Part shown: positions 39,657 to 64,000 of the stretch, one piece after another
Layout of the letters: every line of letters begins with the position of its first letter
How positions within the stretch are numbered: position 1 is the first letter of the stretch
Assembly (NCBI GenBank): GCA_027491115.1
Contig: JAIXWV010000020.1
Coordinates: forward strand, 229,975 to 293,974
Source: Pseudomonadota bacterium
GTDB lineage: Bacteria > Bdellovibrionota > UBA1018 > CAIMNF01
DNA: 64,000 nucleotides
Direction of reading: 5' to 3'
Made by a program: the position numbers and the translations under genes
The notes under the pieces: generated by a model
The model's input: only the letters and a program-made list of their open reading frames with translations
Told to the model about the DNA's origin: nothing
Databases searched by the model: none

Positions 39657-39681
39657 TACTTCTTGCCCATAAATTTTGGAA

Positions 39682-40482: not shown

Positions 40483-40571
40483 CCGTAAGGATTATCCCTT
40501 GCCCGGAGAAAAAGAAAAGATGGTTCTTAGCACTGTTCGCGAAATCACTAAATAAAATGTAGAATCAGATC

Positions 40572-42540: not shown

Positions 42541-42677
42541 AACTCGGCCGACGATAGTAAAGTATTCTTCTCGGCTCCCTTAGAGAATCCTTGAATTAAG
42601 TAGAATACCTGTCAAAAAAAAGTCTAAATCACAAAGACTCTGGTCAGCTTGACGGGTTCTTCGCTGGGCATTATCTT

Positions 42678-47316: not shown

Positions 47317-47317
47317 A

Positions 47318-48721
47318 TCAGAACTGGAAGTAAATAAATTGTTCACCAGAAAAATGCGCTCCGAATAGGAACACAATCAAAATCAAAAAATAAAGTCCCC
47401 AACGCAATAATCCTGGAAGAGATCTCACCCTCTTCCAGAAGGGTTTCTTTTCGTCCCACCATTCGAAGAAATACATCGCAACTAGTAGAACCACGAACTC
47501 GTAAACCACGTCCCGTCTCAGAAGGTCAAATCCCATTAGGAACGGACGGAAAAAGCCCTTGAACATATCGGCTACACACTCCATGGTTTCTGAGCGGAAG
47601 AAGATCCAGGTGATCATCATCGCCAGGAAGACATAAACTCTTCCTAGCCACTTAGGCCAATTCTCACTCCGATACTTCGTTGGCACGAGGCCCTCGAGGA
47701 TAACATAGCCACCTTGAGTGGCCCCCCATAGAATAAATTGCCAACTCGGCCCGTGCCAGAATCCACTCAAAACGAAAGTAATCATGAGATTGAGCCGAGT
47801 CCTGAAAGCACCATGCTTACTTCCCCCCAGTGGGATATAGACATAGTCCCTAAACCATGAGGACAGAGAAATATGCCACCTCTTCCAAAACTCAGTCATC
47901 GAGGTTGCAAAAAAGGGCTTATCAAAATTCACCATGACCTCAATCCCGAGAATCTTTCCTGACCCTCGAGCGATATCGGAATATCCACTGAAGTCACCAT
48001 AACAACGTAGGGCCAGAGCGCTACACGCCAGAAAAATGACCAAACCCCCGAAGCGAGAAGGGGCTTCAAAGACACCATTAATGAGGAGCGCAACCCCATC
48101 AGAGAGAATGCACTTCTTAAATAGGCCCTGGGCGATCAGATAAAGTCCGGAGACCACCCGCTCATAGTCGAACTCGTTCTTCCGCCAAAGCTGAGGGATC
48201 ATATTTGCAGGCCGCTCGATCGGCCCTGCAACCAACTGTGGGAAGTACATGACGTAAACGGAGTAGACCAAAAGATTCTTTTCAGCAGTCCATTTTCCTC
48301 GATAAACATCGATGACATAAGATAAAGACTGAAAAGTGTGGAACGAGAGGCCAATAGGAAGAATGATTTCTAGTGCTTGGATAGAATAGTTCCAGTGGAG
48401 CGACTTAGCGAGTGCATTGATATTTTCGATCAAAAAATTTGAGTACTTGAAGAAAAACAGAATAGAAAGGTTCGACAGTACACTTAGGGCCAAATACCAT
48501 TTTTTCTTTTCTGTTGTGCCTGCGGCCTGAATCATTCGTCCCGCAAAATAGTCGATAAGAATGATCGCATAGAGAATCAGAAGATACTTTGGCATGAAAA
48601 AGCCGTAGAAGATCGAGCTCGAAACTAAGAGGAGCCAAAGGCGATTGCGCTGCCCGAGCATGAAGTAGGCCGCACAGACGAGAGGCATGAAAATCAGAAA
48701 TTCAAATGAATTGAATAGCAT
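47318..48721 (-). CDS. MBOAT-family membrane-bound O-acyltransferase (AlgI/DltB/PatA-like)
   Basis: MLFNSFEFLIFMPL... N-terminus, multi-TM, conserved His in ...FWHGPSW...; 467 aa. Confidence 0.8.
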   Translation of the reverse strand: MLFNSFEFLIFMPLVCAAYFMLGQRNRLWLLLVSSSIFYGFFMPKYLLILYAIILIDYFAGRMIQAAGTTEKKKWYLALSVLSNLSILFFFKYSNFLIENINALAKSLHWNYSIQALEIILPIGLSFHTFQSLSYVIDVYRGKWTAEKNLLVYSVYVMYFPQLVAGPIERPANMIPQLWRKNEFDYERVVSGLYLIAQGLFKKCILSDGVALLINGVFEAPSRFGGLVIFLACSALALRCYGDFSGYSDIARGSGKILGIEVMVNFDKPFFATSMTEFWKRWHISLSSWFRDYVYIPLGGSKHGAFRTRLNLMITFVLSGFWHGPSWQFILWGATQGGYVILEGLVPTKYRSENWPKWLGRVYVFLAMMITWIFFRSETMECVADMFKGFFRPFLMGFDLLRRDVVYEFVVLLVAMYFFEWWDEKKPFWKRVRSLPGLLRWGLYFLILIVFLFGAHFSGEQFIYFQF

Positions 48722-51709: not shown

Positions 51710-52281
51710 GATCGATCAGCCGCGACTCCGATGTTGAACCAATCTCGCAAGATCTTACCCAAGGGGGTCCAATAACCCTGCACCACCATCGCGTTAACGT
51801 GCATCCCTGGCCGTAGGGCTGAGTCTCCAGACAAAATTCTGGCATCATTCGAAAATGGTCCGGACACCGCAGCAGAATAAGTTGGGGGTGAACCCATCGG
51901 CTCATTCCGGATCGACTCAATCACTCCCTCAAAAGGTGGAATCAACTTTTCCGAGACCCCATCCACTCTCAAAATGACTCGCATTCCTTTTTTTATCTGG
52001 AGTGTTTCAGAGACACCCAATTGGACCAAGGCGATTAGACGGGAGTCCTTGCCATCGATCTGTGCGAGAACCCCCCTTGAACTCACCGTATGCGGTGCCT
52101 CGAAAAAAGAAGCGTACCCCACCGTCAATCCAAGCAACACCAGCAGGAGTCGCACCGAATAACTAACCGCGGCACTTGGTCTTGAAGCGACAAACTCAGC
52201 CATCCCCCAAGATACCTTCGACGGGCTGTACGTCACCGCTTCTTCGGAGGAGTCGGAACGCTCGGCGGGTTCAATGTGCAT
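51706..52281 (-). CDS. short HlyD-family periplasmic adaptor lacking the coiled-coil hairpin
   Basis: 191 aa with a single N-terminal TM and a beta-rich C-terminal membrane-fusion-protein domain (GMRVILRV...GMHVNAMV); overlaps the ABC gene stop by 4 nt. Confidence 0.55.
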   Translation of the reverse strand: MHIEPAERSDSSEEAVTYSPSKVSWGMAEFVASRPSAAVSYSVRLLLVLLGLTVGYASFFEAPHTVSSRGVLAQIDGKDSRLIALVQLGVSETLQIKKGMRVILRVDGVSEKLIPPFEGVIESIRNEPMGSPPTYSAAVSGPFSNDARILSGDSALRPGMHVNAMVVQGYWTPLGKILRDWFNIGVAADRS

Positions 52282-52367: not shown

Positions 52368-54899
52368 TTGAGTAATGAACACACAAAGGCGTTACTGACT
52401 CTTGCAAGCGATCTCACATTCTTCAACTTCAACGAAGTGGAGATTCATGAAACTCTAGAACTGTTTCGACAGATGAGTGAGAATCTTCAGCCGCGAACCG
52501 GCGAACGAGCCGTGATCATATCGCTCGAATCGGGCGCTTACCGGATGACGCTCGGCCCCCCCCGACCCGAACCTGGGTTCGACGGGGAGCTGATTTTCCT
52601 TACCGAAGAAACTTGGTCTTCCCGAGTAGGCAAGGAGAAGACTGCACCCTTCCTGGATTTCCTCGAGCATGAGATTCCCAGCGAAGCTCACCTCAGCGGT
52701 GAACAAACCACAACTGACCCAGACGAGGAGATTCGGCTTTTCCACAAAAACTCAAATGCACCAGAAGGAAAACCCGTATTTATCCCTCAACACGACGAGA
52801 TGGACTGCGGAGCCGCCTGTCTTTCGATGATCGCGCATTATTACGGGAAAAAGATATCTGTCCCTGACTATCGCTCAAGAGTCCATGTTACCCGCGAAGG
52901 GGCCTCCATGCTCGCCCTCAAACGCGCGGCCGAACAAACCGGTTTCGACGCAATCGGAATCTACTCTGGATTAAACTCGAATCTACTTCAGGTTCGCACT
53001 CCGTTCATCGCCCTCATGGACTATCATTTTGTCGTGGTCTATACGGTGACGGAGAAAGAATTCCTAGTTGGGGATCCCGCAGTTGGAATTAGATCAATCC
53101 CACTGGAAGAAATAAGAAAGTCGTGGTCGAAGTTCCTGCTCCTATTGAAGCCAAACTCCACTTTCAAAGACCAGAAAGAGAGCTCACCTACATTTAGAAA
53201 GTATCGACGTGTTTTTCAAGGAGAAGGAGGCCGCCTTTTCGATATCGCGACCGCATCGATCTTGAGCTTATCTGTAGGGGTGATCACACCACTCTTCATG
53301 CAAACCGTTTTCGATCGTGTATTCAGCGAAAAAAGCCAGGATGGACTCACGGCCTTGGTCATTGCCTCAGTGGCCGCCACAGTCGCATCGACTTTCTTGG
53401 GCTGGGTGAGCACCTACACATTCTCCCATTTATCCATTCGTCTAGATTCCAAGTTCTCCGCTCTGTTCATGCGACACACCCTATCTCTACCCTCTGGATT
53501 TTTCGCTGTGAGGCGGGTCGGAGACATTACCACACGTGTTCAAGAGTTGGGCGTGTTGAGGAGTTTTTTTACTGGGGATCTCCTCGCGTTGCTGATGTCA
53601 CTCCTGTCTGCGGTCATGTATTCAGTTCTTGCGGCGCTTTACGACTGGAGAATCCCTCTTCTGGTATTCTGTCTTCTTTTCTTTCAGGTACTTTTCGTTC
53701 TTAAAATTTCAAAGAAAATCTCTGAAATTTACCAGCAGTCCTTTAAGTCTTCGACGAAGAGTCAAAGCCTTCTTTATGAACAGATCCATTCGATCGAGAC
53801 GCTTAAAATCCTCAATCAGACAACTCCGGCCCGCTGGCGATGGGAAGAAACTCTTCTAGACTCCCTCAGGCTTCAAAGAAAACTCGGTCTATATACTGCA
53901 ATTTCAGCAGGCAGCTCGGAATTCTTTAGAGAAGCCTCCCTCAATATTTGTATCTTTCTATGCCTTTATCTTTACCTACTGAACGATCTGACTCTCGGTC
54001 AGATTGTGGCGGTCACTGCCCTGATCGGGAACATCACACCGGCGATTGTTCATCTGGTAGAGTCACTTACTACCATCAGCCAAATCAAGGTCTCTCTTGC
54101 AAGGGTGGATGACGTGATCACTTCGTCTCCAGAGAAGACCGAGGGTCGCATGGATTTCGATCCTTACGGAAAGATCGAGTTCAGAGGAGTATCATTCCAG
54201 TACGGAAATGAGTTATCGCCATATGCCCTCCGGAATGTGGATCTAACCATCAACTCCGGGCAGTCGGTGGCTTTTGTGGGAACAAGCGGTTCTGGCAAAA
54301 CAACTCTTGCCCAGATGATCGGGCTACTCCATCGCCCCACACAAGGCAGTATCCTGATTGATGGTGTCGACATCACCACTTTGGACCTGGAGAGACTCAG
54401 ACAGCATGTCGGAATGGTCCTTCAGGAAAACAACCTCTTCAGCGCGAGCGTACTAGACAACATCACCCTAGGGGACCCAAACCCATCCCGACAAAAGGCG
54501 ATCGAGGCAGCCAAGATCGCTCAGATCGACGAACTGATTCAGACTCTGCCTGGGACATATGATTATCTGATCGACCCAGTTCACTCCGGCCTTTCGATGG
54601 GCCAAAAGCAAAGAATTGGAATTGCGCGAGCAGCCTATAGGAATCAAGCCATCCTTATCCTAGATGAGGCAACCTCTGCGCTTGATGGAATCACAGAGAA
54701 AAAAATCATTGAAGCTCTGATGCGGCACCGGAAAGGCAAGACAACAGTGGTAATCGCTCACCGGCTTTCTACTGTTTCTGGAGTGGACCAGATCTGTGTT
54801 TTTGAAAAGGGCACTCTGGCTGAAAAGGGAACCCTGAAGACTCTCACTCGAAGAAGGGGGAGATTCAGCGAACTATTCGCCAATCAACTTCAATTCTGA
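52368..54899 (+). CDS. peptidase-C39-containing ABC transporter (PCAT, double-glycine leader processing exporter)
   Basis: C39 catalytic motif QHDEMDCGAACLSMIAHYYG, 6-TM exporter domain, Walker A GTSGSGKTT, signature LSMGQKQR, Walker B ILDEATS; 843 aa. Confidence 0.85.
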   Translation: MSNEHTKALLTLASDLTFFNFNEVEIHETLELFRQMSENLQPRTGERAVIISLESGAYRMTLGPPRPEPGFDGELIFLTEETWSSRVGKEKTAPFLDFLEHEIPSEAHLSGEQTTTDPDEEIRLFHKNSNAPEGKPVFIPQHDEMDCGAACLSMIAHYYGKKISVPDYRSRVHVTREGASMLALKRAAEQTGFDAIGIYSGLNSNLLQVRTPFIALMDYHFVVVYTVTEKEFLVGDPAVGIRSIPLEEIRKSWSKFLLLLKPNSTFKDQKESSPTFRKYRRVFQGEGGRLFDIATASILSLSVGVITPLFMQTVFDRVFSEKSQDGLTALVIASVAATVASTFLGWVSTYTFSHLSIRLDSKFSALFMRHTLSLPSGFFAVRRVGDITTRVQELGVLRSFFTGDLLALLMSLLSAVMYSVLAALYDWRIPLLVFCLLFFQVLFVLKISKKISEIYQQSFKSSTKSQSLLYEQIHSIETLKILNQTTPARWRWEETLLDSLRLQRKLGLYTAISAGSSEFFREASLNICIFLCLYLYLLNDLTLGQIVAVTALIGNITPAIVHLVESLTTISQIKVSLARVDDVITSSPEKTEGRMDFDPYGKIEFRGVSFQYGNELSPYALRNVDLTINSGQSVAFVGTSGSGKTTLAQMIGLLHRPTQGSILIDGVDITTLDLERLRQHVGMVLQENNLFSASVLDNITLGDPNPSRQKAIEAAKIAQIDELIQTLPGTYDYLIDPVHSGLSMGQKQRIGIARAAYRNQAILILDEATSALDGITEKKIIEALMRHRKGKTTVVIAHRLSTVSGVDQICVFEKGTLAEKGTLKTLTRRRGRFSELFANQLQF

Positions 54900-55651
54900 T
54901 CGTCCCGATCCACCCAGGAAAGAGTCATCTCGATCCGCACTCGTCTCCGATCCTCGATACAGCTTTCAAGCAGATATCTTGCCTCCTCCTGATACTGTGC
55001 GCAGGAGAACTGCGATGCAAGCCTAGATTCGATCCTCTCAACTAAACCTGCCGTCCACTTGAAGTGATGAACTGGAACCGCTAGCTCCGCTCTCTTGACC
55101 GAAGCAGGATCTTCAAGCACCCGATGGAGCCCGGGGCCCAATCGCACGACCGGCCTTGATAGGGGAACCTTGGTGGAAGAACCCTTCAGAATGTCGGCTG
55201 TGAAAAGCGCCTGAACCGGAAACTGCGCAAAGATCGAAGTGGTCCCCAAGACCGGGTTCAAAGCTCCAAGAGGAGCGAATCGATCAATTAGAGTTCCTCC
55301 CAGATAGTCGTACGGACTAACAATCAGCTGGGAAAGAAACCCCGGGTCCAAGCTCACGAATTCGTCACTATCCACTGTCCAGACCCACTGGTCAGACTTC
55401 AAGACCGTGGACTTGTACTCGGAGATCTTGGCCACTCTTTGCAACTCGTCCACCGAACCCACACTCGACTCGATCAGGGTCACTGGATTCTGCGCGAACA
55501 AAGCCAGGTAAGGGTGCACCGAATCCTGGATTCCAAGAGGATTACTGAAAAAAAGATGAAATCTCTCAACTCCCATCTTTCGGTAAAAGCGGAACCATTG
55601 CGACAGGATGTCGATCGAGTCTGCGGTCGAAACATAGGCAACCAGATTCAT
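54890..55651 (-). CDS. GT92-like (former DUF23) nucleotide-sugar glycosyltransferase
   Basis: ILSQWFRFYRKMGVERFHLFF resembles the GT92 EWIEYH..GV.HFYIY block; DxD-type VDSDEFV. Confidence 0.45.
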   Translation of the reverse strand: MNLVAYVSTADSIDILSQWFRFYRKMGVERFHLFFSNPLGIQDSVHPYLALFAQNPVTLIESSVGSVDELQRVAKISEYKSTVLKSDQWVWTVDSDEFVSLDPGFLSQLIVSPYDYLGGTLIDRFAPLGALNPVLGTTSIFAQFPVQALFTADILKGSSTKVPLSRPVVRLGPGLHRVLEDPASVKRAELAVPVHHFKWTAGLVERIESRLASQFSCAQYQEEARYLLESCIEDRRRVRIEMTLSWVDRDDQN

Positions 55652-55669
55652 GTTGCGACACCACTCGTT

Positions 55670-56758
55670 TCAAAACCGTACATACTGATCTCCCCTAACC
55701 AATAACCCCAACCCCATCATCGACTCGATTTCACGAGGATTGAAAAAAGCAATCTCCTCACGGTAGTATTCCGGCAAGAGGGCCTCTTTCCCGGCCAGAA
55801 CCATATCTCGGGCCTCTGGAATCACCCCCTCGGGCCGAATTCCACTCTCCGACTCCTCGTACTGGTTGATCCGATGGAGGTTGAAACCCGAGACTCGACG
55901 GCGGAACATCTCGAACCCACACATCGGGAAATGGAGAATAAGTGCGCTCATACTGTCATCAATCACCACTGAAGCATTGGTAAGATCGGGGTGGTAGTGA
56001 TGCACCGTAGAGGGAGTTTCGATATCTATGAAGTGCCTCGGCCTGAAAACACTCTTTCCATGAGCATACCCGACGAAAGGAAATCTCCGAAAGGCGCGAT
56101 ATCTCATGTACAACCATTGCTTCTCACTCAATATGAAGCGGGTCTTTTTAAAGAGTGCCACCTCTCGAAAGGCGTCTCGGTACTCAATCTGCTGGGGAAC
56201 TGCCTCAACATTAGGAACAAATACCTCTGAGACACGATCATCGAATCGACTCAGATACTCGCTCACTCCGCCACAGGTTCTATCGACCCCAAATAGCTCG
56301 TCTGAATCGAGGTGACAAAGCCAGTCTATTCCCTCCTGAGCAGCGAGTCGTGTGGCATACCCAGTATTGAGCTGCTGCCGCGTCACCACTCTTCTGGAGT
56401 AGGTCTCAGCATGATTCTGATAAAAAATAGTTTTTTGGAGCACCTGCAAGAGGCGGTCGTCATGCTGAATAATCTGCACAAAAGAAGAAAATTCTGACGC
56501 CTGTAGAAGTTCCAAAAATGCGGCGTCATAAGCTGGATCATCCAGAAAAAGATACACCTTTTCAAACCCAACTGAACGGTGGTGACTTAGAAAACTAAAA
56601 AATCCGGAATCAAGCCCTTTGGCTGTAGTCACCAGTGCGGACTTCAACCCATCCCCCAAAAAAGAAAAAGGGCGTCCTTCTTCAACAAAGAAGGACGCCC
56701 CGAAATCATTACTTACCGCCGGCTTTGACCGCACCAGGCTTAGCCCCGGCAGGAGCAA
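55670..56758 (-). CDS. GT92-like glycosyltransferase (second copy)
   Basis: SVGFEKVYLFLDDP and LDSDELFG motifs, a paralog of the preceding gene. The first-listed start is TTG; the true start is uncertain and may lie downstream. Confidence 0.45.
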   Translation of the reverse strand: MLLPGLSLVRSKPAVSNDFGASFFVEEGRPFSFLGDGLKSALVTTAKGLDSGFFSFLSHHRSVGFEKVYLFLDDPAYDAAFLELLQASEFSSFVQIIQHDDRLLQVLQKTIFYQNHAETYSRRVVTRQQLNTGYATRLAAQEGIDWLCHLDSDELFGVDRTCGGVSEYLSRFDDRVSEVFVPNVEAVPQQIEYRDAFREVALFKKTRFILSEKQWLYMRYRAFRRFPFVGYAHGKSVFRPRHFIDIETPSTVHHYHPDLTNASVVIDDSMSALILHFPMCGFEMFRRRVSGFNLHRINQYEESESGIRPEGVIPEARDMVLAGKEALLPEYYREEIAFFNPREIESMMGLGLLVRGDQYVRF

Positions 56759-57146
56759 CGCCTTGCTTCACCGCGGTGGCGGCACTTGCCTTCTGGAATG
56801 GGAACTTGGATGCTGCTCTGAAGCCAGCGCCACCCACCACCAGGTTCGCAAACCGGGCGGATGCGGTGAGCTCGTCGGTGGAGATACCACCTCCGGCGAG
56901 AACCGCCATCTGGGAATCACTCAGCTTCTTCATTCCCCATTCGGAGTCGAAATGAATCAGGTCATCGAACTCTTCAAAGGTTGAGCAAACTCTGGCGACT
57001 TTACCGAGTGACAGTGCGTCTGCTGCGTCAACGGTAGGTCCGAGTAGTTTTGCTTTGGCTTTGATAGAGGTTTCGTCATCCCTTCTAAACGACTCATAAA
57101 CAGACTTCAGAATCACCTTTGGAATACGCCCCTTGGACATCGACAT
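56709..57146 (-). CDS. candidate RiPP precursor: NHLP/Nif11-like leader ending in a double-glycine motif plus a Gly/Ala/Lys-rich core
   Basis: Strong RBS (GGTAAGGAGAAAGC-ATG) and an AT-rich upstream region. Residues 1 to about 86 form the leader, with ...MKKLSDSQMAVLAGG(G) at 72-87 matching the LSxxELxxVxGG consensus. KAKLLGPTVDAADALSLG resembles the NHLP/Nif11 helical block. The 58-59-aa core is ISTDELTASARFANLVVGGAGFRAASKFPFQKASAATAVKQGVAPAGAKPGAVKAGGK. Flanked by a C39-PCAT cassette. Confidence 0.55.
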   Translation of the reverse strand: MSMSKGRIPKVILKSVYESFRRDDETSIKAKAKLLGPTVDAADALSLGKVARVCSTFEEFDDLIHFDSEWGMKKLSDSQMAVLAGGGISTDELTASARFANLVVGGAGFRAASKFPFQKASAATAVKQGVAPAGAKPGAVKAGGK

Positions 57147-57308
57147 GCTTTCTCCTTACCAGCGGAATAAAAGTAACCGCTTTTACATGATTGTAATGTT
57201 TCCTTGTCGGATCAGGTAACAAATAATTAATATTTTTTATGTAAAAAAAGCCGTCTGATTCAAGGGGTTCCATAGAGGTGTCAAAAATGACACTCACCAA
57301 TTCGAGCC

Positions 57309-57992
57309 TCACCTCATGAAGTATTCAATAAATGGCTCGATATTGGCCTTCTGATCCGGACCCCCATTTCCATGGATAATGAGTGGCTGCGTCCCGGTGA
57401 GGACATTTTCAACTCGACCCCCGCTCATCGTATAATCCCAGCCGATAAATCCCGGCGAGAAAAGGGTATAGAATAGCTCGCACCGATGATCGAGTTTAAT
57501 CAGGCCCGGGTTCTCGAGAAACAACCGGGTGTAGAACCTCTGGTCATCCCCCCAGATGTCGACTCCTGAGAAGTTAAAACGCAATGCCGCATTGCGAAAA
57601 TACTCAATCTCAGCCATGAAGCACCCAGCATTGAGGAAACGCCAAGGTGTTTCACAGGGGGGATAGCGGTCTTCCATACCGGCGTCCGGCCAGCAACTCT
57701 GTTCGGCATTAAACACCCAAGGATGTTGAAGTTCGATAAAGCGACGCTCCACCTCCTGTAAGGGAGCTGTGACGACTACATCAAACGCGTCCATGACTAG
57801 TACATGGGTGAATTGATCGCGCATTTCCTCGATAGTTTCGAAAACTCGCTTGATCTTGAGGGCATGAGAGTACTTGGGGAACCCCTCGGGCCAAACGTTT
57901 CGAACCTCGTAACCAAACGAATTCCAGATCCTCGAGCACTCCTTGAAATAGCCACCTTCTCCGTTCCACATGGATAGCACCAGTGTTTTCAT
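57309..57992 (-). CDS. glycosyltransferase homologous to the N-terminal GT domain of lysyl hydroxylase LH3/PLOD (collagen Hyl-glycosyltransferase-like)
   Basis: Motif-by-motif resemblance to the LH3 GT domain as I recall it: DxxD MDAFDV (LH3 VDSYDV), AEQSCWPD (AESFCWPE), WRFLNAGCF (KRFLNSGGF), DDQRFYTRLFL (DDQLFYTRLYL), LDHRCELF (LDHKSRIF), PLIIHGNGG (PIVVHGNGP). Confidence 0.5.
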   Translation of the reverse strand: MKTLVLSMWNGEGGYFKECSRIWNSFGYEVRNVWPEGFPKYSHALKIKRVFETIEEMRDQFTHVLVMDAFDVVVTAPLQEVERRFIELQHPWVFNAEQSCWPDAGMEDRYPPCETPWRFLNAGCFMAEIEYFRNAALRFNFSGVDIWGDDQRFYTRLFLENPGLIKLDHRCELFYTLFSPGFIGWDYTMSGGRVENVLTGTQPLIIHGNGGPDQKANIEPFIEYFMR

Positions 57993-58639
57993 GGACTCAT
58001 AAACCTCGCGACTTCACGATAACGATTGAGATTCTCCGGTGGGATGCCGGCCCTGAAATACTTGTACACTTCTTCCACTTCGACGAAATCGAGCTCCTGG
58101 AACACCTCTACCGGACCGATCGGCAACTGGTACCAAAATCCGGCTAATTCCGTTCGATAGATCCCAGAAAGAATATCGAGCTTAAGCGAGAACTGATCTG
58201 AGGAAAGAGTATGAGCGGTGTAGTTTCTGGAGAATGCTCCCGGTGAAAACACCGGAACGCCAAGCTCGGCGGCCGCCCAATGAACTGCATACGAGACATC
58301 CTGATGCTGGATGTGCCCATACTCGCCGTGTGGAGAATGGGTATAGACCACCTTGTATCCTCCCGAGCGGATCAAGTTCAGAACCGCCTCGTACACTTCC
58401 TCTACGGGCAGTCGCTCGCGAAAGCTATCTTTCAGACTAAGGAGTTCAATCCGAGGCACACCGAGCGCCTGACCGGCGGAATGGAGCTGCGCCATTCGTG
58501 CCTGACCCCTGCCCTCATAGTTTCCGTCGGTCACACAACACAAATCTGCAGCACCGGGGTAAAGCACCGTGAACACCGAAGTAAAGAACAAGGTCTCATC
58601 ATCAGGGTGGGCAGCAACCACTAGCGCTTCACTCTTCAT
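57989..58639 (-). CDS. PIG-L/LmbE-family N-acetylglucosaminyl deacetylase
   Basis: AAHPDDETLFF zinc-binding signature at the N-terminus; 216 aa. Confidence 0.75.
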   Translation of the reverse strand: MKSEALVVAAHPDDETLFFTSVFTVLYPGAADLCCVTDGNYEGRGQARMAQLHSAGQALGVPRIELLSLKDSFRERLPVEEVYEAVLNLIRSGGYKVVYTHSPHGEYGHIQHQDVSYAVHWAAAELGVPVFSPGAFSRNYTAHTLSSDQFSLKLDILSGIYRTELAGFWYQLPIGPVEVFQELDFVEVEEVYKYFRAGIPPENLNRYREVARFMSP

Positions 58640-58752
58640 CAGGTCTTAATCTACACCATCAATCAAGGAATACGGAGAGGCCAATGCATCGTCAGAAATC
58701 CGTCGCTATGCCCAAGCATTGGGAAAGGATAATTTAGCTGAAGGAGCACACG

Positions 58753-59808
58753 ATGCGAACGAAAATCCGGGTGCATTTTCACATCCCCGAGCCCGATGTG
58801 GGCGGTGCCGAGGTTCACGCACTGAACCTATGGAAAACCATCGATCGGTCGAAGTTTGAGCTTACAGTGAGCGCTCCTCCGATGAGGCCAGAGTTCCAGT
58901 GGTTCGAGGAAGAGATCAGGCGCCACGCTCCACTTCACATCTTTTCACGCTCTCCATCCGAGATCGCTCATTTCCTGAGTTCGGTTCGCCCATCCTTGAT
59001 TCAGTTCTACAACAGCATTGATTTTTGTGATGCTCTCGACACTATCGATTTCCCCTTCGCCGGGATCGAGCTCATTCACGCAAAAAAGTTCTGGGGACAG
59101 GACATTACCAAGACTCCAAAGCACCACGTCCGCATCATCATTGGAGTCAGTGATGATGCCTGTAGGTTTTACCTTGATAACCGACTGGAGCGGGACATCG
59201 AGGTCAGAACCATTTGGAATGGGATTGATACCGGGAGATTCCCGCCGAGGCGTAAGGAAGACCCGGATCGATTACGATTCCTCTCGGTCTCTCGACTCAG
59301 TATCGAGGATAAGCGACTCGACGATTTGATTTACTTCTTCAACCGACTCGGGGTTTCCACACACGAACTCCACCTGGTCGGGGAAGGCTCGGATGAGGGC
59401 GTTCTTCGTGAGTTTGCGGAGTCACTCGGGGCTGGAAACGTTCGGTTTCGTGGCTTTCTTGAGGATCCCTCAACCGCTTATTCGGAAGCAGACGTCTATA
59501 TCTCGCTGTCCGAACGCGAGGGGTATGGCCTAAGCCTGGCTGAGGCAGCCGCATGCGGACTTCCAATCCTCAGCTGGAACTGCGGAGGGGTCATGGATCT
59601 ATTTGAGGACGGCAAAAATGCTCTGATCCTTGAAAAAGACGGAGACATTCTTCCGGCGATGTCCCGGATGCTCAAGGATTCCGAGCTCAGGAGAATGCTC
59701 GGACAGAACGCTCGTGCCCTGGCTCAAGCAAAGTTTGATCTCAGAGGAATGACCCGGAGCTACGAGAAACTCTACGAGGAACTCTTGACTCCCCATTCAT
59801 TCGGTTGA
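58753..59808 (+). CDS. glycosyltransferase family 4 (GT-B)
   Basis: RBS AAGGAG; C-terminal EGYGLSLAEAAACGLPILS... GT4 signature (E-x7-E region). Confidence 0.75.
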   Translation: MRTKIRVHFHIPEPDVGGAEVHALNLWKTIDRSKFELTVSAPPMRPEFQWFEEEIRRHAPLHIFSRSPSEIAHFLSSVRPSLIQFYNSIDFCDALDTIDFPFAGIELIHAKKFWGQDITKTPKHHVRIIIGVSDDACRFYLDNRLERDIEVRTIWNGIDTGRFPPRRKEDPDRLRFLSVSRLSIEDKRLDDLIYFFNRLGVSTHELHLVGEGSDEGVLREFAESLGAGNVRFRGFLEDPSTAYSEADVYISLSEREGYGLSLAEAAACGLPILSWNCGGVMDLFEDGKNALILEKDGDILPAMSRMLKDSELRRMLGQNARALAQAKFDLRGMTRSYEKLYEELLTPHSFG

Positions 59809-59861
59809 CGGCGGCTGTCTGCTCAATTGCACTTTAAGCCGAATCCTGCCACGATTGTTGC

Positions 59862-61250
59862 ATGGGGAATCACCTCTACCGCTGGGACGAAATCCAAAAG
59901 CTAAAGGATCTAGCGATCCGGCCGGAGGTTGCCTCTCCATTCGTCGAAGGCTCGGTTCGGACTGGCACTCCGATCGTCCTACGGAACCCGGTCGGGGGTG
60001 CTCTTTTTACAGAAAGGGACACCCTCGAAGTGATCCGAGATATTTTCCTGAATCCCTTCAGGGATCTTCCGAATCCGAAAATCATCCTCGGAGACTCAGA
60101 ACTCTTCTCTGATTACAGCAACGATCCCGACGGGCTCGCCGAGAAACTGCTTCGCCTTGCGCCGTTACCCGATGAAGAGACCGTGAGCAGTTATGTGGAA
60201 CGAGTGAAGCGAGAGACTGGCTCGAGCGAACTTTTCTATTATATGAAGATCCGTTCAGCAAATCATCCCCTCCTCTGGTTCAAAGTCCGGGAGGTGCAGA
60301 AACACATCTTTAACCGAATGCCCTATCCGGCCGGAGGTGTCGAGCTGGATATTTTCTTCGGCGATTACTCCAAAACACCCACTAACATCCATCGGGACGG
60401 AGCCGGCTTCATTTATGTCGTGAGTGGATCAAAAAAATTTCATGTGTGGCCGTTCGACCGATTCAGCGGACTCGATTCGGTCAAAAACGATGCCCGATTG
60501 AGGCCCGCTTACTTTCTTGGCGAATCTGTACGCTTCGAAGATGCGGTGGCGACAGGAATCCCACTCGAGGGGAGTCGAGGCGACATCATCTTCTGGCCAG
60601 ACGACCATTGGCATATCGCGGAGGGAGACGGAAGCATTGCGATCACTTTCTGCATGAGTTTTTTCTTTAACTTCTCCATTCTCAGTGAAATCGAGCCCGC
60701 ACTCCAGTCCATCGGTGCAGGGGATCCACAATCATTAGTCCCGCGCGAGCTATCGAAATCGGGAGGATCAGGTCCGGATGTGACTCCGTTAAATAATGAG
60801 CTGGTCACAGCCCTCGATCGCTGGTGGAAGGATACCAGCGTCATTTACAGTAGGCTACGAGAAGCCTATACACTGAAACAAATCGAGAGGACGAGCGGAG
60901 CAGGTTTCAACCAGCCCTTTTTTCCAGTTAGGATCGATCGGGAAAGCCTGATTGGGGTTCGCCTGAAATGTGATCCGGAGTTCCCCTTGCATCATGTTGT
61001 CCTGGGCAAGGTCACCCATGTTGCCGCAAATGGCATAAGCAGCGCCTTCACGGACGCTTGTGAACCGCTTATTCCATTTCTTACCTGGCTCAACACAGGG
61101 GCGGAGTTCACGACCGACACAGCAACCATATTGTTCCAGGAGACGACACGGCAATCGGTCAACGAGCGCGAGCGTAGAACTCTTGAAAGCTGCCTCGAAT
61201 TCGTTCTGTCGATGAGAGCGGCATTCATTGTAAACGGAAGCGGTCCATGA
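59862..61250 (+). CDS. JmjC/cupin-like domain protein (candidate 2OG-dependent hydroxylase)
   Basis: Cupin beta-sandwich with a HxD...H arrangement (NIHRDGAGFIYVVSG...FHVWPFD ... IIFWPDDHWHIAEG); 462 aa with an extra C-terminal domain. Confidence 0.4.
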   Translation: MGNHLYRWDEIQKLKDLAIRPEVASPFVEGSVRTGTPIVLRNPVGGALFTERDTLEVIRDIFLNPFRDLPNPKIILGDSELFSDYSNDPDGLAEKLLRLAPLPDEETVSSYVERVKRETGSSELFYYMKIRSANHPLLWFKVREVQKHIFNRMPYPAGGVELDIFFGDYSKTPTNIHRDGAGFIYVVSGSKKFHVWPFDRFSGLDSVKNDARLRPAYFLGESVRFEDAVATGIPLEGSRGDIIFWPDDHWHIAEGDGSIAITFCMSFFFNFSILSEIEPALQSIGAGDPQSLVPRELSKSGGSGPDVTPLNNELVTALDRWWKDTSVIYSRLREAYTLKQIERTSGAGFNQPFFPVRIDRESLIGVRLKCDPEFPLHHVVLGKVTHVAANGISSAFTDACEPLIPFLTWLNTGAEFTTDTATILFQETTRQSVNERERRTLESCLEFVLSMRAAFIVNGSGP

Positions 61251-62341
61251 GTTCCGTCCTCGACCTTCTGCGCACCCTGGACTTGCCGAAGTCCAATCTC
61301 GCTGTTTCCATGCTCGAGCAACGCTCCATGGAGCCAGATGATGGCGGGGTACGGATTTTCTTCTATGACTCCCCAGAATGGTTGGAGCTCGAAGAAAAAG
61401 CTGTTCGCGCCTTCAACGATGAAGGGCACGTCTATCCGGAGGACATTGCGCTCTATGTCCTGCTCAGAGACCGATTCTGGCAACATCGCGTCCATCGGCC
61501 GGAGGAAGCCGACTTCGTTTTCACTCCCTTTCCTGCGACTACGGCCCGATGCATTCCTCAAGACGAGTTCAACAGGGCACTTGGACGCATGAGCCTTTTG
61601 GGTAAGATTCCACACCTGCTCATCGACACCCACGACGCCTATTCCCGCCCAGGATACGCGCAAGGGAATCCTTCGCGGGAATCGTTGGCGGAACTCAAGC
61701 AAGCTCTCTTCGGCTGGATCAGCGCGGATTTCACGCTTTTGTATCTTGACTCGACCCCGCAGGACCATCCGGATGATATCCCTGTCCTTCCGTTTTGTGG
61801 CTTCGAAACGATCCCACCTGATGCGACCGAGAGGCCCTACTCCACCGGCTTCGTCGGCACCCTGGGTCAGGAGCATTGGCCAGCAGGAAACATCCGCGGG
61901 AAAGACGCGTTTCAGAATTGGATGGATCTCAAGGATTCCTTTGGTACCGATGCTTTTATAGGCTCCAACATGGAAGCAATCCTCACTCTTTCGGGTATCA
62001 CATCCCCCCTGATTGAGCTTCCTCGACTCTCTAAGACTTGGCTTTGTCCGCGAGGATTCAGTTCTTATACCTACCGAATCTCGGAGTCGGTACTGAGCGG
62101 TGCTGTACCGTGGATCTTGGCCGACGACTACCGTCTCCCGTTTGAACAGCTCATCGATTGGAGTGGGTTCTCCATCCGGAGCCGGGAGTCCGATTTACCC
62201 CACCTGAAGGAGACTTTCGTTCAGAACCGTCTCCCTATCGAACAAAAGATCAAAAAACTCCATGATTTCCAGCATTATTTTACTCCGGAGGGGCTATTCC
62301 AGTTGATCCGGATGGAACTCAAGAGGAGGAGGAAAGAATGA
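61247..62341 (+). CDS. exostosin/GT47-like glycosyltransferase
   Basis: C-terminal exostosin hallmark: WLCPRGFSSYTYRISESVLSGAVPWILADDYRLPFEQLIDWSGFSIRSRESD (compare F.LCP.G...R..EA...GCIPVI..D...LPF...IDW..FSV). ATGA overlap with the upstream gene. Confidence 0.5.
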   Translation: MSSVLDLLRTLDLPKSNLAVSMLEQRSMEPDDGGVRIFFYDSPEWLELEEKAVRAFNDEGHVYPEDIALYVLLRDRFWQHRVHRPEEADFVFTPFPATTARCIPQDEFNRALGRMSLLGKIPHLLIDTHDAYSRPGYAQGNPSRESLAELKQALFGWISADFTLLYLDSTPQDHPDDIPVLPFCGFETIPPDATERPYSTGFVGTLGQEHWPAGNIRGKDAFQNWMDLKDSFGTDAFIGSNMEAILTLSGITSPLIELPRLSKTWLCPRGFSSYTYRISESVLSGAVPWILADDYRLPFEQLIDWSGFSIRSRESDLPHLKETFVQNRLPIEQKIKKLHDFQHYFTPEGLFQLIRMELKRRRKE

Positions 62342-63531
62342 AACACGAGCCACCTCTTTTTGGAGCCTACTTCTACCCCATTAGTAGCAAGTGCCCGGTC
62401 CGAAATTCCCGCGCTGAAACCCTCGCTCTGCCCCAGGTGCCGAATGAGTGCACTCTGGCATTGAATGCCACACCGCTGTTTCCCGGCCACGAGCAACCAC
62501 AAAAGTACTGCATTGATCGAGAGCTCACCACCACTTGGGATGATGCTGACCCCGAAACAATGAGGAAGCATGTCCAGCTCGCCAAGGAACACGGGATCGA
62601 CTTTTTCCTGTTCGATACCTACCTCGGGCTCAAGGACGGAAAGGTTTACCATGAGCTGAAGGAGTGCATTGACCTCGGAATGCTTTCTCAGCAGCTCGGT
62701 GACTTCAAGTTCGCGGTTATGAATGTACCCGCCAGTCCTCGAGTCATCCTTCCGATGCCGAAAAACCTCGAGAAACGACTCTCAGACTTTTATCGCGAAG
62801 AGCGGTTCTACGAAATCTCTGAGGCCTGCGCCGAAGTAATTGTCGACCACAATCAATCGAAATATTGGGGACATGCCAATTATCTTCATATCGACGGACG
62901 CCCGGTTCAAGCCCTGTTCATCGGCGATTTCCGCTTTGAAGATCCAGAGCTTGAACGAAAGCGAGTGCTCGATTTTCTGCTTCGATTCAAGAGCTACTCC
63001 TTTGAAAAATACGGTGTCCGTCCTTATGTCATTGCCGTCATGGTGAACAGCCTCGACTTCATCGAAGAGTGCATGGCTGCAGAGGTCGATGCGATTACCG
63101 GTTATGGATTGCTAGCCTATTTTGAGAAATACGAGTCGAGCGTCCAGAACTACCCCGACCTTGTAGAGCGACGGATCGAAGACTGGCCACTGATCCAGTC
63201 GATGATCGGAGATATCCCTTTCATTCCCCCCATCGTCCCTGGCTTTGACTCCTCTCCACGCGGAGAGAATCACACCAAGCTGGAAGAGGTGACGGGGCGC
63301 TATCCATTCACGCCCGTCGTTGCGAACTCTAATCCCGAGTCCTTCGAGAACATGATGTCTGCGGCGCGGACCTTCATCGAGAGTCCGTTCCCAAACCGTC
63401 CTCCGCTTTATTTGTTTTCCACCTGGAACGAGATCACGGAAGGAATGGCCCTTCTCCCCAAGGCTAACCGCGGAACCTTCGATTCGACCCTACTCGAGCG
63501 GGTCAAAAAATTTAAGGAAACACTCAAATGA
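62338..63531 (+). CDS. WbsX-like (GH99-like) glycosyltransferase family protein
   Basis: N-terminus ...LFGAYFYPISS resembles the FYLPQFHP start of WbsX-family proteins; 397 aa. Weak call. Confidence 0.3.
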   Translation: MKHEPPLFGAYFYPISSKCPVRNSRAETLALPQVPNECTLALNATPLFPGHEQPQKYCIDRELTTTWDDADPETMRKHVQLAKEHGIDFFLFDTYLGLKDGKVYHELKECIDLGMLSQQLGDFKFAVMNVPASPRVILPMPKNLEKRLSDFYREERFYEISEACAEVIVDHNQSKYWGHANYLHIDGRPVQALFIGDFRFEDPELERKRVLDFLLRFKSYSFEKYGVRPYVIAVMVNSLDFIEECMAAEVDAITGYGLLAYFEKYESSVQNYPDLVERRIEDWPLIQSMIGDIPFIPPIVPGFDSSPRGENHTKLEEVTGRYPFTPVVANSNPESFENMMSAARTFIESPFPNRPPLYLFSTWNEITEGMALLPKANRGTFDSTLLERVKKFKETLK

Positions 63532-64000
63532 GCTCAACTGAAAATAAGAAGCTACTCCTTACCATCGCTTGTGGAGATTACTATCAACGAATGGCGGAAA
63601 TCACCCATCCCTTCCTGAGGAGCTATGCGGAAAAGATCGGCGCGGACTTCCATTGCATCTCGGAACACCGTTCAGAGCTTCCCGCCCATTTTCAGAAGAT
63701 GTCCATCTATGAATTCCTGGAGCGCTACGATCGGATCCTCTTCATGGATACGGACATTCTGGTTCGACCTGAGGCTCCAGATCTTTTTTCTATTGTAGAT
63801 GAGCAGCACCTCGGTCTTCTGGACCAGTCCCAACACTATTCTTCGAGTCCGATCCAGTTTAGATCCGCCGTGAGCCTGTGGGGGTATGACCTTTCACCCG
63901 AACGCTATTACAACACCGGAGTGATGGTGATCTCGAAGATCCACCGCAATCTTTTCCGCATACCTGTTGACATCCGACCGGAGCAGGTCCCCTTCGACCA
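63528..64000 (+). CDS. GT8/GT34-like nucleotide-sugar glycosyltransferase, 3'-truncated by the window end
   Basis: ATGA overlap start; YAEKIGADFHCI, DxD MDTDILV and YYNTGVMVI motifs typical of GT8/GT34 (Mnn10/GMA12-like) retaining GT-A enzymes. Confidence 0.4.
   Translation, partial: MSSTENKKLLLTIACGDYYQRMAEITHPFLRSYAEKIGADFHCISEHRSELPAHFQKMSIYEFLERYDRILFMDTDILVRPEAPDLFSIVDEQHLGLLDQSQHYSSSPIQFRSAVSLWGYDLSPERYYNTGVMVISKIHRNLFRIPVDIRPEQVPFD

Follow-up and report, generated by a model that had tools for sequence, protein, structure and literature searches.

The 64,000-nt stretch of DNA analysed here, hereafter the window (Pseudomonadota bacterium GCA_027491115.1, contig JAIXWV010000020.1, positions 229,975-293,974, forward strand), contains a region that we regard, with slightly better than even confidence, as the core of a RiPP cluster in which a peptide would be hydroxylated and then multiply glycosylated before export. 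Because a small exported peptide is encoded among about eight glycosyltransferases (GTs) and several hydroxylases, the likely product would be a heavily hydroxylated, sugar-coated peptide of a kind not yet described in bacteria. This reading draws on the anatomy of the precursor, ATGA coupling, a C39 peptidase, GTs free of transmembrane (TM) segments, synteny, the genomic contexts of the oxygenase and GT47 families, an M16 peptidase, and the lack of a priming transferase, Wzx, Wza or ABC-2 exporter in the scanned DNA.

An earlier note on this DNA had described co-directional, ATGA-coupled GT genes of eukaryotic type around a leader-peptide gene, and the observation was largely real with respect to Pfam domains, ATGA overlaps, precursor and exporter. 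Four ATGA start/stop overlaps were found, three on the plus strand (61247-50, 62338-41 and 63528-31) and one on the minus strand (57989-92). The genes are not co-directional, however, but form two divergent operons of GT genes that part around 58640-58752, and the gene list had passed over a GT4, a PIG-L, a WbsX-family and a JmjC-like oxygenase gene (see below). Contigs 99.9% identical to the window extend the cluster by 8.3 kb; over 12,754 nt, L001 has 14 mismatches to the window and L002 has 3. The extension encodes a GT8, a GT4, a PIG-L, a GNAT, an M16 (PqqF-like) peptidase, two more Fe/2OG oxygenases and, at the cluster end, an NAD-dependent epimerase/dehydratase. Altogether the core cluster comprises about eight GTs, four Fe/2OG oxygenases and two PIG-L deacetylases, and the whole block is a low-GC island adjoining LPS genes.

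The precursor gene (56709-57146, minus strand; 145 aa) is supported by its open reading frame, its conservation and its own AAGGAGA ribosome-binding site with an AT-rich region upstream, and it sits between GT genes transcribed in the same direction. Directly after its stop codon lies an intrinsic terminator (56669-56701, minus strand) with a 15-bp stem, 8 GC pairs and a T-run. The leader of about 86 aa ends in the double-glycine motif KKLSDSQMAVLAGG; a long leader is a usual trait of RiPP precursors that are recognised by enzymes. The core of about 59 aa is Cys-free and carries the conserved motifs GISxxEL, RFANL, GGAGF, SKFPFQKA and a C-terminal AGGK, and no Gly-X-Y repeats were found in the peptide. 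No other product of the cluster is as well conserved: orthologues of the precursor are 80-98% identical. The family is narrow, only close relatives having turned up in the search, and it matched no family in Pfam or NCBIfam and thus neither a Nif11 nor an NHLP leader; both features speak against the RiPP reading.

As claimed earlier, the leader-peptide gene lies beside its exporter. This PCAT (52368-54899, plus strand) consists of a C39 double-glycine peptidase (Pfam, 110.6 bits), an ABC membrane domain and an ATPase; its best NCBIfam match was the NHLP bacteriocin exporter TIGR03796 (470 bits, under the cut-off of 853). The catalytic Q/C/H/D motifs are present, with the catalytic cysteine in Q...DCGAAC, and the peptidase looks active from these residues. 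According to the domain scan, a second ABC exporter of 989 aa with a weak cNMP-binding-like N-terminal region is encoded at 48740-51709 (minus strand), and the GT47/cupin/GNAT module of L010 comes with a homologue of it (33% identity). Next to it, a 191-aa protein with one predicted TM segment (51706-52281, minus strand) is possibly a short membrane-fusion (HlyD/AprE-like) component; the window copy gave no family match in the domain scan and its L007 orthologue showed a faint Beta-barrel_AprE match. The exporters found in the cluster are all of peptide type.

On the minus strand, two adjacent genes encode GT-A type enzymes. The first (54890-55651) has a DSDE motif, and PF13704 was its sole match, just below threshold (26.5 bits, cut-off 27.5); its motifs align with those of the neighbouring GT and an orthologue in L007 is 59% identical. 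In the second (55670-56650) PF13704 (Glyco_tranf_2_4) was the best match at 29.9 bits. The mechanical reading frame of the latter reaches 56758, the L007 orthologue has 327 aa, and translation probably begins downstream of the terminator, at a TTG near 56647-56659. An assignment of both genes to GT92, as made originally, was not supported, since PF01697 stayed below threshold (16.5 bits for 55670-56758, cut-off 23). The proposed LH3-like GT was borne out: the single-domain LH3/PLOD-type (R699-like) enzyme at 57309-57992 (minus strand) matched the PLOD GT domain PF25342 with 104.6 bits, and among solved structures it came closest to mimivirus R699 (E 1e-21) and the GT domain of human LH3 (E 1e-20). 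By alignment, D68/D71, F70, E97 and W101 correspond to D83/D86, Y85, E114 and W118 of R699, and D149/D150 and N209 to D162/D163 and N218, so that the catalytic residues appear intact. The plus strand encodes a WbsX-family putative GT (62338-63531; PF14307, 42.4 bits; 74% identical orthologue in a relative) and the GT8/GT34-like enzyme of the earlier list, here a GT8 with a DTD motif (63528-64000; 30.3 bits, cut-off 24.3) that is cut by the window end and has 228 aa in full. None of the GTs has a predicted TM segment, which fits cytoplasmic stepwise assembly.

The ATGA-coupled neighbour of the LH3/PLOD-type GT is a PIG-L family de-N-acetylase assigned by Pfam (57989-58639, minus strand), and a GT4 follows at 58753-59808 on the plus strand (PF00534, 94.4 bits; in NCBIfam, BshA, stp2 and SdgB matched weakly and far under their cut-offs). 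The presence of two GT4 + PIG-L pairs, with BshA and BshB1 among the better, though not top, NCBIfam matches and below cut-off, raises the question of whether the product is a free aminoglycoside-like or oligosaccharide compound, the peptide being separate, e.g. a co-exported bacteriocin or signal. GT4 and PIG-L would then work as in 2-deoxystreptamine or thiol-glycoside pathways, sugars would be tailored by the PhyH-like oxygenase, whose best solved relative (E 4e-13) is HygX from the hygromycin B pathway, and self-resistance would come from the Acetyltransf_9 GNAT, which is conserved along with GT47 and cupin and belongs to the family of the Eis acetyltransferase. We consider this very unlikely. 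These enzymes fit such pathways and so count against the RiPP reading, but an enzyme that forms a cyclitol or aglycone was not found in the available sequence, the best-conserved product is a precursor with a long leader, the exporter has a leader peptidase with apparently intact catalytic motifs, and the JmjC-like oxygenase family is tied to GG-leader precursors elsewhere.

That oxygenase is a 462-aa JmjC-like (Cupin_8) Fe/2OG enzyme (59862-61250, plus strand) with a conserved H177-x-D179...H251 motif, translationally coupled to the GT47 gene; this coupling implies that the hydroxyl group would be glycosylated next. Its JmjC-like assignment rests on motifs and sub-threshold scores (Cupin_8, 17.5 bits), a point against the RiPP reading; the family profile had weak matches to JMJD5 and NO66 alone, both JmjC protein hydroxylases, and one homologue passed the JmjC_2 cut-off. 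Homologues neighbour GG-leader precursors in three further clusters. In a Gemmatimonadota MAG (L013/L016) they immediately follow three tandem genes for 67-aa GG-leader peptides, in L018 a homologue comes after a different GG precursor, and in L029 one comes after four tandem GG-leader genes, in a cluster that has a PCAT and HlyD. JmjC peptide hydroxylases of RiPP pathways are exemplified by BipG of biphenomycin (PMC12707348) and CzlI of curacozole (PMC11575548). Like these JmjC/cupin Fe/2OG enzymes, which act on the precursor peptide, the present family adjoins precursors and may work by analogy; unlike them, the enzyme here is translationally coupled to a GT47.

The exostosin/GT47 assignment was confirmed. 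The enzyme (61247-62341, plus strand) matched Exostosin_GT47 (PF03016) with 61.7 bits against a curated cut-off of 33.4, covering positions 4-288 of 293 in the profile, and appears as a soluble single-domain protein. The earlier description of these GT kinds as overwhelmingly eukaryotic fits the known characterised enzymes. The nearest relatives of this GT47 with examined contigs occur in bacterial-type gene contexts, mostly peptide natural-product clusters. At E<=1e-3, a search of 1.84 billion representatives gave 937 relatives, and those on examined contigs were at most 34% identical outside two close lineages. They recur beside amino-acid hydroxylases and in RiPP or NRPS clusters: P0011 is a fusion of GT47 and a 2OG oxygenase, L027 combines three GT47 genes with two 2OG oxygenases and one PCAT, and in L028 a GT47 adjoins a CmlA-like beta-hydroxylase and an NRPS. 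Elsewhere, a GT47 adjoins PqqD, a lasso B2-type protease and an HPr-kinase-like gene (L025), and an ABC exporter, GNAT, GT47 and cupin are kept together (L010/L011). Since the best exostosin structure match, EXT2, scored only 18.6 bits and one narrow scan of viral contigs was negative, we see no sign of a recent GT transfer from eukaryotes or giant viruses in these sequences.

The gene order was also informative. A relative with 58% GT47 identity keeps it entirely; its enzymes are 34-75% identical and its precursor 80%. This second lineage retains all eight core GT genes in order at 56-75% identity. This shared order could be plain inheritance, because the two syntenic lineages are close enough. 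Conservation also bears on a more modest scheme in which the peptide is hydroxylated and exported and only one or two GTs act on it, giving a glycocin-like mono- or disaccharide, while the rest serve another glycan. To our knowledge, known glycosylated RiPPs carry one or two sugars, our literature search on them having returned only glycocin and cacaoidin work with one or two sugars, and the operon split could mean different targets. We nevertheless hold this scheme to be quite unlikely, as the second lineage keeps all eight core GT genes and translational coupling links the GT genes with one another and with the oxygenase.

The upstream half of the island, on the minus strand unless stated, contains polysaccharide-type genes, which count against the RiPP reading. 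An MBOAT membrane O-acyltransferase (47318-48721; PF03062, 96.7 bits), a 39.5%-identical homologue of which adjoins a cupin homologue in L023, and its possible partner, an AlgX/SGNH-like protein (46168-47376; weak match of 19.6 bits, below cut-off), form a probable extracytoplasmic acylation module. The domain scan further assigned a GMC oxidoreductase (44588-46171) and a polysaccharide deacetylase (43732-44586). A GT2 (42678-43448, plus strand), a 454-aa polytopic protein of no family (41176-42540), a SAM methyltransferase (40572-41240, plus strand), a 2OG-FeII_Oxy_3 oxygenase (39682-40482) and, at the start of the low-GC island, a DUF6311 polytopic protein (37950-39656) follow; membership of the genes at 37950-43448 in the peptide pathway is uncertain.

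The GT, deacetylase and acyltransferase genes could belong to a lipid-carrier surface or secreted polysaccharide or glycolipid system, in which an unrelated bacteriocin-type cassette of precursor, PCAT and ABC protein has lodged. Such a pair of separate neighbouring systems, which we rate as unlikely, would agree with the MBOAT, AlgX-like, deacetylase and GT2 genes, the two polytopic proteins, which could be Wzy- or GT-C-like, the cluster GT4s, whose best NCBIfam matches were exopolysaccharide GTs far under cut-off, the terminal epimerase/dehydratase, and the position of the low-GC island beside LPS genes. Against it, no priming phosphoglycosyl transferase, Wzx or Wza/Wzc was found among the scanned large ORFs (the likeliest coding one from each overlapping set) of the window and the 8.3 kb beyond, and no ABC-2 exporter (Wzm/Wzt) in the same ~72 kb. 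The reported absence of Wzx, Wza and a priming transferase thus stood; that of Wzy is less certain, given the two unassigned polytopic proteins. Moreover, the precursor is embedded co-directionally between GT genes, an arrangement shared by the relative with 58% identity; peptide exporters and precursors repeatedly accompany GT47 and cupin relatives in lineages that are unrelated; and three to four protein-hydroxylase-type oxygenases have no obvious polysaccharide role. The proposal of a glycan on the exported peptide instead of an exopolysaccharide is supported in part, its likeness to extensin/AGP or collagen being a conjecture of the note: the precursor inside the GT operons, the kept order, the peptide exporters and the oxygenase/GT47 contexts favour it, and co-localisation and family membership make the peptide a candidate glycan acceptor.

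Several known systems resemble parts of the cluster. Glycocins (sublancin, glycocin F, pallidocin; S-/O-glycosylated, SunT-type PCAT) rely on one SunS-type GT2, bear one or two monosaccharides and have Cys-rich disulfide-stapled cores. The present cluster may be analogous in its double-glycine-leader precursor, cytoplasmic glycosylation before export and C39-ABC exporter, and differs in its about eight GTs of other families, four Fe/2OG oxygenases, two PIG-L proteins, Cys-free core and 86-aa leader. NHLP/Nif11 RiPPs with the NHLM cassette (TIGR03796/03797 plus HlyD-family protein) likewise have a GG leader, about 80 aa long, and pair a PCAT with a second ABC protein and a membrane-fusion-like gene; however, the scores here are far under the equivalog cut-offs (470 vs 853; 316 vs 709), neither the Nif11 nor the NHLP model matches the leader and the membrane-fusion-like protein has only 191 aa. 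Glycosylation of collagen Hyl by LH3/PLOD3 and mimivirus R699/L230 involves a homologous GT with the key catalytic residues beside Fe/2OG oxygenases and the same hydroxylase-then-GT logic. In contrast, the bacterial enzyme has 227 aa and consists of the catalytic domain alone, with neither an accessory nor a lysyl-hydroxylase domain, neither a GT25-type galactosyltransferase nor a PLOD-type lysyl hydroxylase was found in the cluster, and the peptide, here a putative acceptor, lacks the repeats of collagen. With eukaryotic GT47 enzymes (EXT1/2, plant MUR3 and IRX10, and the extensin arabinosyltransferase ExAD) the bacterial enzyme shares a nearly full-length, above-threshold domain and a C-terminal motif conserved with EXT2, but it is soluble and single-domain, has no type II membrane anchor and scored low against EXT2. 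In serine-rich-repeat adhesin glycosylation (GtfA/B, Gly, Nss, SdgA/B) a large adhesin is exported by accessory Sec. Cytoplasmic stepwise O-glycosylation of a secreted polypeptide by soluble GTs including GT4 and GT8 may be a common trait, and weak NCBIfam matches to SdgB and GtfA were seen far below cut-off; here, a small leader-bearing peptide would be exported by a PCAT and hydroxylases are present. Part of the toolkit (GT4 + PIG-L pairs, GNAT, HygX-like oxygenase) resembles aminoglycoside/oligosaccharide pathways.

For the hydroxylated glycopeptide we propose the following route. The 145-aa precursor would be made with its double-glycine leader and Cys-free core, and Fe/2OG oxygenases, candidates being the JmjC-like enzyme and one or more P4H-type enzymes, would hydroxylate side chains in the cytoplasm. 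Soluble GTs would then assemble oligosaccharides on the hydroxylated residues and/or Ser/Thr, with the GT47 as a candidate for the step that directly follows hydroxylation. GlcNAc would be attached by the GT4/PIG-L pairs and turned into GlcN by deacetylation, the LH3/R699-type GT, GT8, WbsX-type GT and two PF13704 GT-As would extend the chains, and the GNAT, HygX-like oxygenase and epimerase/dehydratase would tailor or supply sugars. The PCAT would cut the leader after GG and export the product together with the second ABC protein and the short membrane-fusion-like protein, after which the upstream MBOAT/SGNH, deacetylase, oxidoreductase and polytopic proteins may modify it outside the cytoplasm. 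If this holds true, the locus would represent a multi-GT, multi-hydroxylase ribosomal peptide cluster, some of whose GTs belong to kinds that are otherwise familiar chiefly from plants, animals and giant viruses.

We consider it somewhat better than an even bet that the region is a RiPP cluster whose peptide is hydroxylated, glycosylated stepwise by soluble glycosyltransferases (GTs) and exported, each of these steps being one that we infer. ORF listing combined with Pfam scans resolved window positions 54890-64000 into two divergent operons around 58640-58752, so the co-directional packing of the GT genes described in the earlier note did not hold. The minus-strand operon encodes a PIG-L de-N-acetylase (57989-58639), an LH3/PLOD-type GT (57309-57992), a 145-aa ORF for the GG-leader peptide precursor (56709-57146) and two GT-A proteins (55670 to about 56650, and 54890-55651) with PF13704 as best Pfam match. 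On the plus strand follow a GT4 enzyme (58753-59808), a 462-aa protein with a weak Cupin_8 match (59862-61250; 17.5 bits vs a cut-off of 27.4), GT47/exostosin (61247-62341), a WbsX-type GT (62338-63531) and GT8 (from 63528), which is cut by the window end. Four ATGA-type start/stop overlaps were confirmed in the GT/precursor region, as had been described, and membrane segments were predicted in none of its GTs. At 54890-54899, the 3' ends of the plus-strand gene for the C39 peptidase-containing ABC transporter (PCAT) and of the minus-strand GT-A gene overlap convergently by 10 nt.

When the proposed eukaryote-type GT families were analyzed, exostosin/GT47 was upheld by a PF03016 match of 61.7 bits (cut-off 33.4) spanning profile positions 4-288 of 293, and the same domain was matched by the L007 orthologue (on a related contig) and by relatives of the window GT47. 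A PDB sequence search returned EXT2 as its sole solved relative, with 18.6 bits over the C-terminal motif. No hydrophobic segment was predicted in the GT47 protein, which therefore lacks a type II membrane (Golgi) topology; this topology is typical of eukaryotic GT47 members but does not define them. The LH3-like GT also stood, with 104.6 bits for PF25342 (cut-off 27), its closest solved relatives being mimivirus R699 (E 1e-21) and then the human LH3 GT domain (E about 1e-20). R699 is a collagen galactosylhydroxylysyl glucosyltransferase whose Mn2+, uridine-stacking and acceptor-contact residues include D83/D86, Y85, E114, W118, D162/D163 and N218 (PMC12279948). These align with D68/D71, F70, E97, W101, D149/D150 and N209 of the LH3-type GT, in which the Mn2+-binding DxxD, the uridine-stacking aromatic residue and the catalytic E, W, DD and N residues are all kept. 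With 227 aa the enzyme consists of the catalytic domain alone and has neither an accessory domain nor a fused lysyl hydroxylase domain. For GT8, the truncated ORF scored 30.3 bits on PF01501 (cut-off 24.3) and contains the DTD motif, in line with the original assignment, and the full-length copy of 228 aa beyond the window carries PF01501 too. The two supposed GT92 enzymes had to be reassigned: ORF 55670-56758 reached only 16.5 bits on PF01697 (curated cut-off 23), ORF 54890-55651 gave no match, and both fit PF13704 better. The PDB sequence search found no solved relative of either GT-A protein or of the WbsX-like protein, and a single-sequence AlphaFold2 model of the GT-A protein 55670-56758 was too poor for a fold search (pLDDT 32).

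The precursor gene is preceded by an AAGGAGA ribosome-binding site and an AT-rich region, and a terminator with a 15-bp stem lies directly 3' of its stop codon. Its product bears out the claim of a leader-peptide gene: it contains KKLSDSQMAVLAGG, with the GG motif at G85-G86 and the hydrophobic residues L75, M80 and L83 at positions -12, -7 and -4, and all of these residues are invariant across the precursor homologues. As an alternative cleavage site we weighed a second 'VVGG' within the core, but prefer the first GG because the second agrees poorly with the hydrophobic pattern at -4/-7/-12. The precursor matched no family in Pfam up to E = 5 or in NCBIfam up to E = 0.01, and since it matches neither the Nif11 (PF07862/TIGR03798) nor the NHLP (TIGR03793) model, a leader of these types was ruled out. 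The core contains no Cys and no Gly-X-Y or Ser-Pro repeat architecture; its conserved prolines are P116 and P132, and one homologue carries ASPPPG. Shared-word searches recovered close relatives alone, three for the precursor, five for GT47 and two for the 462-aa oxygenase.

The exporter expected beside the leader peptide is the PCAT (52368-54899, +; PF03412, 110.6 bits), the C39 domain of which keeps the catalytic Cys, His and Asp in the motifs Q...DCGAAC, YHFVVVY and VGDP. Among NCBIfam models this transporter comes closest to the NHLP bacteriocin exporter, with a score that falls far short of the curated cut-off. Together with a second ABC exporter (48740-51709) and a 191-aa protein with a single transmembrane segment, it forms a cassette resembling the three-gene NHLM export set.

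From about 37950 to 64000 and through 8.3 kb beyond the window, the whole cluster has a GC content of 45-53%, down from about 57%, suggesting that it is an island of 34 kb or more gained by horizontal transfer. At its left border there is no tRNA, integrase or Rfam element, and tRNA and Rfam features are absent from the entire window. The first 34 kb of the window are diderm core genome (Lon, AlaRS, LpxA/D, an LpxB-LpxK fusion, BamA, LolCDE). The fusion is a single 698-aa ORF (21162-23258, -) that joins lipid-A-disaccharide synthase (LpxB) to tetraacyldisaccharide 4'-kinase (LpxK). Just before the low-GC island lies a gene for a 1183-aa protein (34032-37583, +) that consists of RCC1 repeats over nearly its whole length (PF25390, E 3e-108), a type of repeat protein best known from eukaryotes. 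From about 37950, the upstream half of the island encodes a DUF6311 polytopic protein, a P4H-type oxygenase, a methyltransferase, a 454-aa polytopic protein and GT2, followed by a polysaccharide deacetylase, a GMC oxidoreductase, an AlgX-like protein and MBOAT. The contigs L001 and L002, which differ from the window by 3 to 14 mismatches in 12,754 nt, run 8.3 kb further and encode there the full GT8, a second GT4, a second PIG-L (485 aa), a 222-aa protein without assignment, an Acetyltransf_9 GNAT, an M16 (PqqF-like) peptidase, a P4H-type 2OG oxygenase, a PhyH-type oxygenase and an NAD-dependent epimerase/dehydratase. For the PhyH-type oxygenase (L001 19294-20196, +, about 6.5 kb past the window end) the best solved relative is HygX (4XC9/4XCA, E 4e-13), which forms the orthoester in hygromycin B biosynthesis and has a glycoside as substrate; this hints that at least one cluster oxygenase acts on sugars and not on the peptide. 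No PDB relative was found for the downstream P4H-type oxygenase, and the only PDB match of the upstream one was OGFOD1 (E 0.036).

The GT4/PIG-L/GNAT/HygX-like set and the polysaccharide-type genes upstream would also be accommodated by three other readings of the locus: a glycan island that houses an unrelated bacteriocin cassette, which we regard as unlikely; a peptide that receives just one or two sugars, which we hold to be improbable; and a free aminoglycoside-like oligosaccharide, the least probable of the three. The apparent lack of lipid-carrier priming and polysaccharide export genes in the window and the following 8.3 kb speaks against all of them. Pfam domains of priming phosphoglycosyl transferases, polymerases, Wzx, Wza/Wzc and ABC-2 were unseen in the large ORFs scanned there, in agreement with the earlier note; two polytopic proteins carry no functional assignment, the DUF6311 protein and the 454-aa protein, the latter with a PMT_2 hint (E 0.46). 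The three readings are further opposed by the position of the precursor, which is embedded among the GT genes and is the best conserved product. Between the window and the L007 relative, whose GT47 is 58% identical, gene order is fully preserved over the stretch that begins with the ABC exporter and ends with the epimerase; enzyme identities lie between 34% (M16) and 75% (PLOD-type GT, PhyH), and the precursor reaches 80%, with leader and N-terminal core almost invariant. In both lineages, independent assemblies (the 41.7-kb contigs L001/L002, and L007-L009) end 30 to 370 nt past the epimerase gene, so a repeat or a strain-variable junction may lie there.

The contexts of homologues in other contigs speak against the three alternatives as well, and for a RiPP pathway. 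An exhaustive HMMER search of 1.84 billion representatives yielded 937 GT47 relatives at E<=1e-3, of which no more than 59 reached E<=1e-10, so that the clade is rare; pattern scans of GTDB species genomes and JGI metagenomes gave no GT47 matches. On L010/L011 (32% identity), the module seen in the window recurs, with an ABC exporter, GNAT, GT47 and a homologue of the 462-aa cupin protein. In a 693-aa marine-metagenome protein (P0011; L026 447-2528), GT47 (65-328) is fused to 2OG-FeII_Oxy_3 (598-685). L027 (803-7226, 71% GC) is an independent GT47, hydroxylase and peptide-exporter cluster: three GT47 genes are interleaved with two P4H-type (2OG-FeII_Oxy_3) oxygenases beside a PCAT with intact C39 active site, and no precursor was identified on this 7.2-kb fragment. 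GT47 adjoins PqqD, a transglutaminase-core lasso B2-type protein and an HPr-kinase-like gene on L025. On L028 (2634-13360) it lies immediately 3' of a CmlA-like diiron beta-hydroxylase and is followed downstream by an M28 peptidase, a MacB-type exporter, a PALP/OCD pair and an NRPS, suggesting that GT47 there glycosylates a beta-hydroxy amino acid of a non-ribosomal peptide. The remaining two contexts are a solitary gene in a bacterial contig and a contig too short to judge. Thus, in a small and non-random sample, an amino-acid oxygenase adjoins or is fused with GT47 in 4 of 7 contexts, and peptide natural-product hallmarks likewise occur in 4 of 7. These counts form the main new argument that the window GT47 acts on a hydroxylated peptide residue. 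Viral contigs scanned for the PLOD-type GT gave no match, a result of little weight because the patterns were clade-specific N-terminal peptides.

The 462-aa protein, a putative JmjC-like oxygenase, belongs to a family in which Cupin_8 scores rise to 25.3 bits in the L011 homologue and the L034 homologue passes Pfam JmjC_2 (22.6 vs 22). H177-x-D179 and H251 are conserved within the invariant motifs TP..H.D and WP.D.WH. A PDB search with the protein sequence alone returned nothing; with a ten-member family profile, all 25 matches were to the JmjC protein hydroxylases JMJD5 or NO66, weak in score (E 0.07-0.6), with alignments that pass exactly through the two motifs. AlphaFold2 with a three-sequence alignment gave a model too poor for fold search (pLDDT 49). 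In a Gemmatimonadota MAG (L013 7732-9787, identical to L016) the cupin homologue follows three tandem 67-aa ORFs whose leaders end in DVSGG, and on a second Gemmatimonadales contig (L018 5998-7508) another GG precursor lies upstream of it. On L029 (8776-11173) it comes after four tandem GG-leader ORFs, in a cluster with HlyD, a sigma-54 activator and a PCAT 31% identical to that of the window. The neighbourhoods on L017, L019, L021 and L022 were uninformative. Judged by gene neighbourhood, the homologues point to peptide substrates, and JmjC peptide hydroxylases have precedent in RiPP pathways, namely BipG (PMC12707348) and CzlI (PMC11575548). The cupin homologue on L023 (2270-4550) adjoins an MBOAT 39.5% identical to the window MBOAT, which suggests that the upstream MBOAT module is functionally tied to the peptide pathway. 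The precursor cores of these RiPP-like clusters on L013/L016, L018 and L029 are rich in Cys, Pro and Lys. In the Gemmatimonadota cupin enzymes HxG replaces HxD, as it does in halogenases and HygX.

In the RiPP pathway that we favour, the precursor would be hydroxylated in the cytoplasm and then glycosylated stepwise by soluble GTs, GT47 acting after the JmjC-like enzyme. GlcN would come from the GT4/PIG-L pairs, chain extension would fall to the R699-type GT, GT8, the WbsX-type GT and the GT-A proteins, and the GNAT, the HygX-like oxygenase and the epimerase may tailor the sugars. During export, the PCAT would cut the leader after G86; the M16 peptidase, the upstream MBOAT/SGNH, the deacetylase and the oxidoreductase may act after export.

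We rate the cluster as a putative glycosylated RiPP system with an unprecedented enzyme set. It shares the leader and PCAT logic of glycocin and NHLP-type RiPP systems. Glycocins, however, depend on a SunS-type GT2 and a Cys-containing disulfide core, both missing here: no PF00535-type GT adjoins the precursor, and the only GT2 lies 13 kb upstream. Unlike in NHLP/Nif11 systems, the precursor has no Nif11/NHLP leader. The pairing of hydroxylases with LH3-type and GT47 enzymes recalls collagen and extensin glycosylation, whereas the Gly-X-Y or Ser-Pro repeats of those substrates are not present in the peptide. Literature searches on glycosylated RiPPs returned glycocin and cacaoidin examples alone and none on hydroxylysine-glycosylated RiPPs, and no paper was found that ties GT47/exostosin to RiPPs or bacterial biosynthetic clusters. 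To our knowledge, no glycosylated RiPP described to date bears more than two sugars or needs more than two GTs to attach them, and we know of no characterised GT47 or LH3/R699-type enzyme from outside eukaryotes and giant viruses. It is a tentative proposal, with the odds rather against it, that the cluster represents a RiPP class undescribed so far, in which leader-guided peptide residues are hydroxylated by JmjC/P4H-type enzymes, after which soluble GT47, LH3/R699-type, GT8 and GT4 enzymes O-link oligosaccharides to them.

If true, such a peptide, hydroxylated several times and then glycosylated by about eight GTs, would belong to a new chemical class, relevant to natural-product discovery and glyco-engineering. 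The recurrent pairing of GT47 with hydroxylases across RiPP and NRPS clusters, be it by adjacency, translational coupling or fusion, provides a testable genome-mining rule. If it exists, the pathway would parallel, in prokaryotes, the Hyp-glycosylation of extensins/AGPs and the Hyl-glycosylation of collagen, and would give bacterial members of the GT47 and LH3/R699-type families their first function. In that case, the bacterial GT47 clade would serve RiPP and NRPS products alike as a general 'hydroxy-amino-acid glycosyltransferase', and might inform the origin of the eukaryotic GT47 enzymes.
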